NCBI GenBank assembly: GCA_001776275.1 | Contig: MFAQ01000041.1 | Span: 54,057-82,658 of the forward strand | Source of the DNA: Candidatus Collierbacteria bacterium RIFOXYD1_FULL_40_9 | Lineage (GTDB): Bacteria > Patescibacteriota > Microgenomatia > UBA1400 > MFAQ01 | DNA: 28,602 nucleotides | Reading direction: 5' to 3' | Shown here: in pieces, positions 2,992-3,456 of the stretch | How the letters are laid out: the number at the start of each line of letters is the position of its first letter | How positions within the stretch are numbered: the stretch's first letter is position 1 | Made by a program: the position numbers and the translations under genes | The notes under the pieces: generated by a model | Databases searched by the model: none | What the model was told of the DNA's origin: nothing | The model's input: only the letters and a program-made list of their open reading frames with translations

Positions 2992-3213
2992 TTAGGGGGC
3001 GACTACTTTTGGAATAAGTCCATCAAGATGCTTATTATCCAGAGAATTAGTCTGAATATCCGCAATATTCGGATTATCATATGTAGCCACCCCCATGAAC
3101 GGAGTGCTTAAGCTAACGGTATCGCAAACGATTCCTGCACCTAAACAATTTGTATTCATAGGGTATAAAGCTAAGAAGCATTTTAGTAATAAGTGATTAC
3201 TCTCGTTGGCCAC
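2992..3213 (-). CDS. Possible small ORF (73 aa, GTG start) inside the RT leader
   Basis: Track ORF ending 11 nt before the HTH start; its GTG lies inside the 3210-3221 helix. No homology recognised. Confidence 0.2.
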   Translation of the reverse strand: MANESNHLLLKCFLALYPMNTNCLGAGIVCDTVSLSTPFMGVATYDNPNIADIQTNSLDNKHLDGLIPKVVAP

Positions 3214-3456
3214 ATGACTCTCAATTCCAAAAAGGAAGCACTCCGTGAACCTAAAGAGTCATGCGGACTAATTAAGTAATCACAAGACAAACAGAAAATT
3301 AGAAACATAGAAACTGTCAGTAGGCAGCTAAGTATCCAATTGCGTGTGTCGGGGCGAATAGTTCCCATCATACGTACCATAGACGGGTGTTCAGACGATA
3401 AATCGTCAAAAATATATGGCATTGAAGAATATGTTACCGATAACTTCTCAAGGTAC
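2995..3456 (-). ncRNA. Candidate structured leader/ncRNA of the HTH-RT operon
   Basis: Helices 3083-3094/2995-3006 (12 bp, 2 G-U), 3255-3266/3210-3221 (12 bp, 1 G-U), 3275-3283/3193-3201 (9 bp) and 3236-3246/3099-3109 (11 bp). The G-U pairs work only on the minus strand. Promoter at 3463-3491. Confidence 0.55.
3183..3422 (-). CDS. Possible small single-TM protein (79 aa from ATG 3422) inside the RT leader
   Basis: Internal part of track ORF 3183..3509 lying downstream of the predicted TSS; hydrophobic stretch WILSCLLTVSMFLIFCLSCDYLI. No homology recognised. Confidence 0.25.
   Translation of the reverse strand: MPYIFDDLSSEHPSMVRMMGTIRPDTRNWILSCLLTVSMFLIFCLSCDYLISPHDSLGSRSASFLELRVMWPTRVITYY

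Follow-up and report, generated by a model that had tools for sequence, protein, structure and literature searches.

A candidate 25-codon toxin gene, nested in an overlapping leader ORF and apparently locked by covarying RNA structure, in a divergent type VI-like retron of Patescibacteria

Comparison of related loci supports a model in which the leader of a reverse transcriptase (RT) locus from Candidatus Collierbacteria bacterium RIFOXYD1_FULL_40_9 would be a type VI-like retron hybrid RNA encoding a 25-amino-acid (aa) toxin, the locked Shine-Dalgarno (SD) sequence of which would be opened by way of an overlapping leader ORF after the RT undoes a pseudoknot. We assign this reading a probability of about 0.55; the comparison points to selection on the peptide ORF, an SD lock, the pseudoknot, and the geometry of the leader. 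The locus lies on the minus strand of the window (the whole 28,602-nucleotide stretch analyzed here), where a promoter is followed by a structured RNA of ~470 nt, a helix-turn-helix (HTH) gene, and the RT gene. An initial annotation had suggested that a small toxin gene, kept locked against translation, lies in such a leader RNA, a general idea that the comparison bears out, and had named two ORFs as possible effectors, ORF1 (3422-3183, 79 aa) and ORF2 (3213-2992, 73 aa). Both lie on the minus strand as described, ORF1 with its hydrophobic stretch and ORF2 with its stop 11 nt before the HTH ATG at 2980, and neither survives a check of conservation; the ORF that appears to be both selected and locked is 3080-3003. 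The features of the locus are as follows.

1687-2664, minus strand: reverse transcriptase, 325 aa, catalytic FVDD intact (PADLOC RT_VI, 6.9e-27)
2657-2980, minus strand: XRE/Cro-type HTH protein, 107 aa (PADLOC HTH_VI, 3.4e-13)
2992-3159, minus strand: 55-codon leader ORF, the genuine part of ORF2, mok-like; frame conserved, protein not
2995-3006, minus strand: anti-SD strand, containing the peptide stop codon; the leader stop follows directly
3003-3080, minus strand: ORF for a 25-aa cationic, hydrophobic helical peptide, candidate toxin, nested in ORF2 in the +1 frame
3083-3094, minus strand: SD strand for the peptide ORF, forming the 5' side of the locking helix (anti-SD duplex -13.2 kcal/mol)
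3099-3109, minus strand: 3' strand of the pseudoknot, lying in the leader ORF immediately before the SD strand
3157-3163, minus strand: upstream box that covers the leader ATG and could pair with the SD strand (3097-3091) as an alternative
3183-3422, minus strand: ORF1 (79 aa), a chance frame over an RNA domain, not a gene
3193-3283, minus strand: large hairpin, outer stem 3283-3276:3200-3193 (7/8 pairs compensatory), inner 12-bp stem 3266-3255:3221-3210 (11/12)
3223-3231, minus strand: candidate priming helix, 3' arm; the pseudoknot strand lies 4 nt to its 5' side
3236-3246, minus strand: 5' strand of the pseudoknot, located in the large hairpin's loop (99.2% paired, compensatory changes at 8/8 pairs)
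3286-3350, minus strand: variable long hairpin, msd-like, its length differing widely among loci
3364-3407, minus strand: two conserved short hairpins, msr-like
3415-3423, minus strand: candidate priming (a1/a2-like) repeat, 5' arm of a short long-range helix, containing the ORF1 ATG
3463-3491, minus strand: candidate sigma70-type promoter with a palindromic operator (palindrome 3485-3463)

The nested peptide is visible in the alignment of 111 non-redundant leaders extracted from loci of the RT family, where a conserved T at every third base corresponds to the second codon position of a hydrophobic peptide in the +1 frame. An ORF for it is found in 110 of the 111 loci, mostly 20 to 31 aa long and beginning with ATG in 102, with family medians of 1.25 for GRAVY and +4 for net charge. 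Its dN/dS over 16 disjoint pairs is 0.18, against 0.93 and 1.16 for the same bases read in the other two frames (the HTH gene, for comparison, has 0.09), and the window and its nearest relative differ in the peptide by eight synonymous and three non-synonymous changes. These values support purifying selection on the 25-aa peptide. A profile built without the window and that relative (L001) recovered 3080-3003 as the only significant hit in the six frames of the host (E 1.1e-6). Searches of Pfam, NCBIfam, PADLOC, and PDB with the peptide returned nothing above the cut-off; the family gave only weak hits to PSM-alpha, in 1 or 2 of 58, and the hydrophobic moment of the window peptide at 100 degrees is not above that of shuffled sequences (p 0.18). 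To judge from sequence comparison, the helix encoded at 3080-3003 is very probably the effector of the retron, and it probably acts as a membrane-damaging toxin. The peptide of one locus (L038) carries in-frame stops and may be a decayed copy or an assembly error. An antisense ORF in register with the peptide, 2983-3111, was set aside as a mirror of its codon pattern.

The reading of the initial annotation, that the 79-aa product of ORF1 or the 73- or 55-aa product of ORF2 is the toxin, now seems barely credible. Both frames exist, and that of ORF2, conserved from ATG 3159, matches in length the small protein (SP) of Retron-Vpa2 (55 aa); against this, ORF1 is dead in the nearest relative and the product of ORF2 is hydrophilic, divergent, and neutral (dN/dS 0.86 to 0.93). 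The RT of that relative is 81% identical and its leader matches closely; ACG stands at the start position of ORF1, an insertion of 2 nt throws the reading out of frame, and stops interrupt the hydrophobic frame. Only 4 of 98 loci have an ORF of this kind, and we rejected ORF1 as a gene on these grounds. U makes up 49% of its hydrophobic stretch, which overlaps the U-rich side of an RNA hairpin, and upstream its frame stays open past the promoter to GTG 3509. When the leader was shuffled by a Markov model, at least one ORF of at least 79 codons arose in 8% of cases and two of at least 73 codons in 0.3%; the excess of ORF length in the real leader comes from those 55 codons of ORF2 that are conserved. 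The GTG at 3213 and an upstream GAGAG had been described as buried in a 12-bp helix (3266-3255:3221-3210); this is right for the GTG and only mostly so for the GAGAG. The helix is, on the strength of compensatory changes at 11 of its 12 pairs, a real RNA structure. In L001 the frame from GTG 3213 is closed by a stop four codons on, so that the helix locks no conserved start, and we discarded this GTG as the start of ORF2.

What is conserved in ORF2 is its frame from ATG 3159 onward. An upstream ATG lies 12 to 40 codons away in this leader frame in 105 of 110 loci, compared with 6 and 2 in the other frames, and the distance from the leader ATG to the pseudoknot varies in steps of three in 77 of 79 loci. 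The product is hydrophilic and divergent, with a dN/dS of 0.86 before the overlap with the peptide and 0.93 across it; selection seems to favor the act of translating the leader and not the protein that results. Translation would begin at an AU-rich, SD-less AUG (unpaired 0.55), run across the pseudoknot strand and the SD, and end right at the end of the locking helix. In 84 of 101 loci the leader stop and the end of the helix are 0 to 1 nt apart, regardless of whether the helix extends 11 or 23 nt past the peptide stop, the leader stop thus following the helix and not the peptide stop; in almost all loci it also lies 4 to 20 nt before the HTH ATG. The leader is truncated or shifted in about eight loci. 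In L147 (upstream of the HTH at 2691) it occupies the other frame with its stop overlapping the peptide ATG, a natural variant with direct coupling, and L076, which is without leader and SD context, may be a decayed copy or an assembly error.

Three RNA elements surround the peptide start. The SD itself is strong, with a median energy of -7.6 across the peptide family against -0.1 for the leader, +0.7 for the HTH, and -1.2 for host genes, and the 16S rRNA of the relatives retains the anti-SD. Host genes (G000) barely use SD motifs even though relatives keep the anti-SD, which makes a strong toxin SD unusual for this host. Compensatory changes at 9 of the 11 pairs of helix 3094-3083:3006-2995, which is 94.8% paired across loci, support sequestration of the SD, and the helix 3246-3236:3109-3099 crosses the large hairpin and would form the pseudoknot. 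RNAalifold selects precisely this pair of helices, and each of the 17 base pairs shows compensatory changes; slid controls were 37 to 45% paired against 90%, and shuffled controls were also far below. For the upstream box, cognate pairing with the SD strand beats 5,000 of 5,000 permutations (p<=0.05 in 35 of 74 loci; window p 0.025), as does that of the 5' arm of the candidate priming helix with the hairpin loop, although such permutation and pair counts come from related loci and overstate formal significance; negative controls treated alike gave null results. The candidate priming helix is short, its pairing in the window is weak (-4.6 kcal/mol), and no conserved G follows it directly, the window being without one too. 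Other pairings were rejected: a direct repeat, 3363-3351/3008-2996, considered as a cDNA switch (no covariation; 3,234 of 5,000 permutations as good), the outer strand of the large hairpin with the anti-SD (4,813 of 5,000), and the 3' tail with the 5' end (1,576 of 5,000, with no covariation). An Rfam search of the leader gave no meaningful match.

Type VI retrons as defined by Mestre et al. in 2020 have an RT of clade 3, type VI lineage, and a Cro/C1 HTH of 91 to 110 aa directly upstream of or overlapping the RT (PMC7736814). The HTH here has 107 aa and its gene overlaps that of the RT by 8 nt; an upstream HTH is present in nearly all loci that have enough flank. As in the class, the hybrid RNA is structured (folding z -5.1), and its covarying helices would hold the toxin gene with the SD paired. 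The second-best PADLOC model for the RT scores 1.1e-15, against 6.9e-27 for RT_VI. A profile search delimits a distinct family, its relatives sharing 38 to 81% identity and belonging mostly to Patescibacteria where named, and RT_VI is the best model of the nine nearest relatives outside it and of the proteobacterial locus L152. The retron motifs NAxxH (region X) and VTG (region Y) are absent, the family having HIQAA and HLG instead, and in RT trees without a type IV/V outgroup the CPR family forms a long-branch group. The single SP upstream of the HTH, 55 to 79 aa in described systems, is replaced by the 25-aa peptide and an out-of-frame leader, with a fused form only in deeper relatives. Because several described type VI features are lacking, we file the locus as a divergent type VI-like variant. 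Neither a direct RT query of the genome contigs nor the RT profile run on viral contigs returned relatives.

The promoter-palindrome pattern recurs in 57 of 106 family leaders, against 8 matches in the whole host genome. The palindrome is of the TATAC-N5-GTATA type, spans the spacer and the -10 element, and is conserved 450 to 590 nt ahead of the HTH in more than half of the family. It is likely the operator of the HTH, a candidate repressor and antitoxin. Upstream of the module is a staphylococcal-nuclease-like gene with an N-terminal hydrophobic segment (3534-4199, minus strand), which adjoins it only here, in L001, and in one other locus; downstream is a large serine recombinase (1-1347, minus strand), with a perfect 18-bp inverted repeat (1374-1391/1633-1650) between it and the RT end. 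The nuclease was found in just two other loci and the recombinase in eight, and both were dismissed as fixed partners. The same island holds a heavy-metal P-type ATPase and an ArsR regulator (5066-7698).

Structural modeling supports binding of the peptide by the HTH. For the 31-aa peptide and HTH of a relative, L052, the predicted complex scored 0.87 and the best control 0.00, the controls not being matched for amphipathy; of 80 solved complexes, 58 attain the mark applied, as do 2 of 110 mismatched pairs. Between runs, at least 89% of contacts were the same, and the partner pLDDT was at least 85. The modeled surface is the C-terminal helix of the HTH, the one also modeled for the HTH of Retron-Sen3 (10.64898/2026.04.27.721009). 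The HTH residues at this interface are conserved across the family, and the window shares nearly all of them. A structure search found no solved relative of the peptide, and the sole hit for the HTH spans just its DNA-binding part.

The split arrangement appears to derive from a single gene. Proteobacterial type VI loci (L152 to L154) and one further outside locus (L170) encode one protein of 41 to 53 aa, polar in its front half and with a similar helix at the C terminus, and eight deeper CPR loci (L066, L167 to L169, L172 to L174, and L177) encode a single fused small protein of 48 to 69 aa ending in a similar helix. The peptide profile scores these fused helices weakly (L177, E 0.003; L173, E 1.5), so the case for homology rests also on position and RNA context. 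Pseudoknot-type pairing occurs inside the fused coding sequence of L167, L168, and L172 (p 0.04 or less), and the fused gene of L172 already contains an internal G-run and an in-frame ATG. The front half of such an ancestral gene appears to have gone out of frame to become the leader while the helix gained a start of its own. A quick RT tree places the fused-to-split change at a single point with support 77, a value that neither shows nor rejects a single change. Six of these loci (L167 to L169 and L172 to L174) come from genomes that read TGA as sense, probably code-25 CPR, and gene finders miss most of their fused toxin genes. In the proteobacterial loci L152 (~1680-1820) and L153 (~1670-1790), early SP codons pair with upstream RNA over 9 to 12 bp (p 0.13 and 0.005, respectively; no such pairing in L154). 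This may be the same pseudoknot, and the accessible text of the Vpa2 and Sen3 preprints does not mention it.

How these parts might work together can be set out as follows. The HTH would repress the promoter and bind leaked peptide, and the pseudoknot, kept in a complex of RT, HTH, and RNA, would gate ribosomes on the leader; an 8- to 11-bp helix alone does not normally stop a ribosome. Upon phage attack, the RT would start at the short long-range helix (a guess on our part), the pseudoknot strand would be copied nearly first, and the knot would open. Ribosomes on the leader would next pull the SD helix apart, in the manner of mok and hok, and the peptide would exceed the HTH, damage the membrane, and abort the infection. 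For the gate, its opening by the RT, and the leader-driven unzipping taken jointly, we regard the chances as about even.

The same 25-aa toxin could instead be controlled after translation, with the leader and helix merely setting a low constant output that the HTH neutralizes by binding and the phage acting on the RT-HTH complex to free the peptide. We think this rather unlikely, even though the SP of Sen3 is constitutively made and neutralized by its HTH (10.64898/2026.04.27.721009), the predicted HTH-peptide complex has conserved interface residues, and the start of the leader is in part accessible: a constant leak would call for less than the three covarying RNA features that surround the SD and the pseudoknot strand near the candidate priming helix. 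It is distinctly unlikely that the leader represses, its ribosomes occluding the peptide start and passing on to the SD-less HTH until phage halts the leader, lowering the antitoxin and raising the toxin. The short distance between leader stop and HTH ATG in almost all loci would suit such a relay, but that stop follows the helix end and not the HTH start, the HTH start is accessible by itself (0.86 in the window), and a similarly placed AUG starts the toxin itself in the fused relatives.

A programmed +1 frameshift that rejoins leader and helix into a protein of ~52 aa resembling the ancestral one would fit two observations, namely that the span from leader ATG to peptide stop is about as long as the fused small proteins (48 to 62 aa) and that the peptide frame of the window is open for nine codons before its ATG. 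It is nevertheless very unlikely, because a stop in the peptide frame lies between the SD strand and the ATG in 23 of 94 loci; such a stop lies between the pseudoknot strand and the ATG in 56 of 94, the peptide has a conserved ATG and a strong SD, and the alignment contains no conserved slippery site.

Type VI retrons with a locked toxin have already been reported in two preprints, and Retron-Vpa2 (Zhang et al.) provides a precedent for msDNA-dependent translation (10.1101/2025.10.22.683967; 10.64898/2026.04.27.721009). Vpa2 shares with the present family the order of RNA, small toxin, HTH, and RT, an RNA of ~470 nt containing the toxin gene, an RBS hidden in structure, and a hydrophobic C-terminal helix, to which toxicity is tied in Vpa2 (10.1101/2025.10.22.683967). 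Vpa2 has one 55-aa SP, an RBS in local stem-loops, and 7-nt direct repeats that link msd and riboregulator, whereas here the toxin would be only the ~25-aa helix, its SD lying in the closing helix and subject to a pseudoknot and an out-of-frame leader ORF; the family leaders contain no covarying counterpart of the repeats, and the RT, unlike that of Vpa2, is without NAxxH and VTG. With Sen3 (type VI cl2075) the family shares an amphipathic C-terminal helix modeled on the C-terminal helix of the HTH and a long-range pairing that closes after the toxin stop; the Sen3 SP has 79 aa in a single frame, and an overlapping leader ORF or pseudoknot was not found described in the accessible text (10.64898/2026.04.27.721009).

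The layout also recalls type I toxin-antitoxin systems. In hok/mok of plasmid R1, a small membrane-type toxin has an occluded SD that depends on an upstream overlapping ORF (PMC11228461). Here too an overlapping upstream ORF spans the toxin gene out of frame; the peptide has no Hok/Gef match above the cut-off in Pfam or NCBIfam, and control would lie with the RT, the HTH, and the pseudoknot, antisense RNA being known only on the hok side. The tisB and timP mRNAs likewise combine a short toxin, an SD trapped in a stem, and an upstream pseudoknot, but their pseudoknot is needed for translation, and timP uses no uORF (PMC11228461), whereas we propose that the pseudoknot here blocks. A literature search, from which subscription journals were largely absent, did not find the nested peptide, the leader ORF, or the pseudoknot described.

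Gene callers choose the neutral 55-codon frame and overlook the 25-codon one, and many type VI loci may therefore seem to have no effector. Neither type VI preprint settles by what route cDNA synthesis or a phage signal would set the toxin free; the present family points to specific bases, namely the pseudoknot beside the candidate RT start, the leader AUG, and the SD helix. It also offers a traceable case of a toxin gene that would have split into a regulatory leader and a minimal toxin, converging on the layout of hok/mok. Tentatively, and as a possibility we rate below the model itself, the RT may be a mechanical key that copies away one strand of the pseudoknot gating the leader, whose translation opens the toxin RBS, the two-step lock having arisen once in Patescibacteria when the toxin gene split into two frames. 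If this is true, similar pairing in single-frame SP genes may be the missing link from msDNA to translation in type VI retrons generally.
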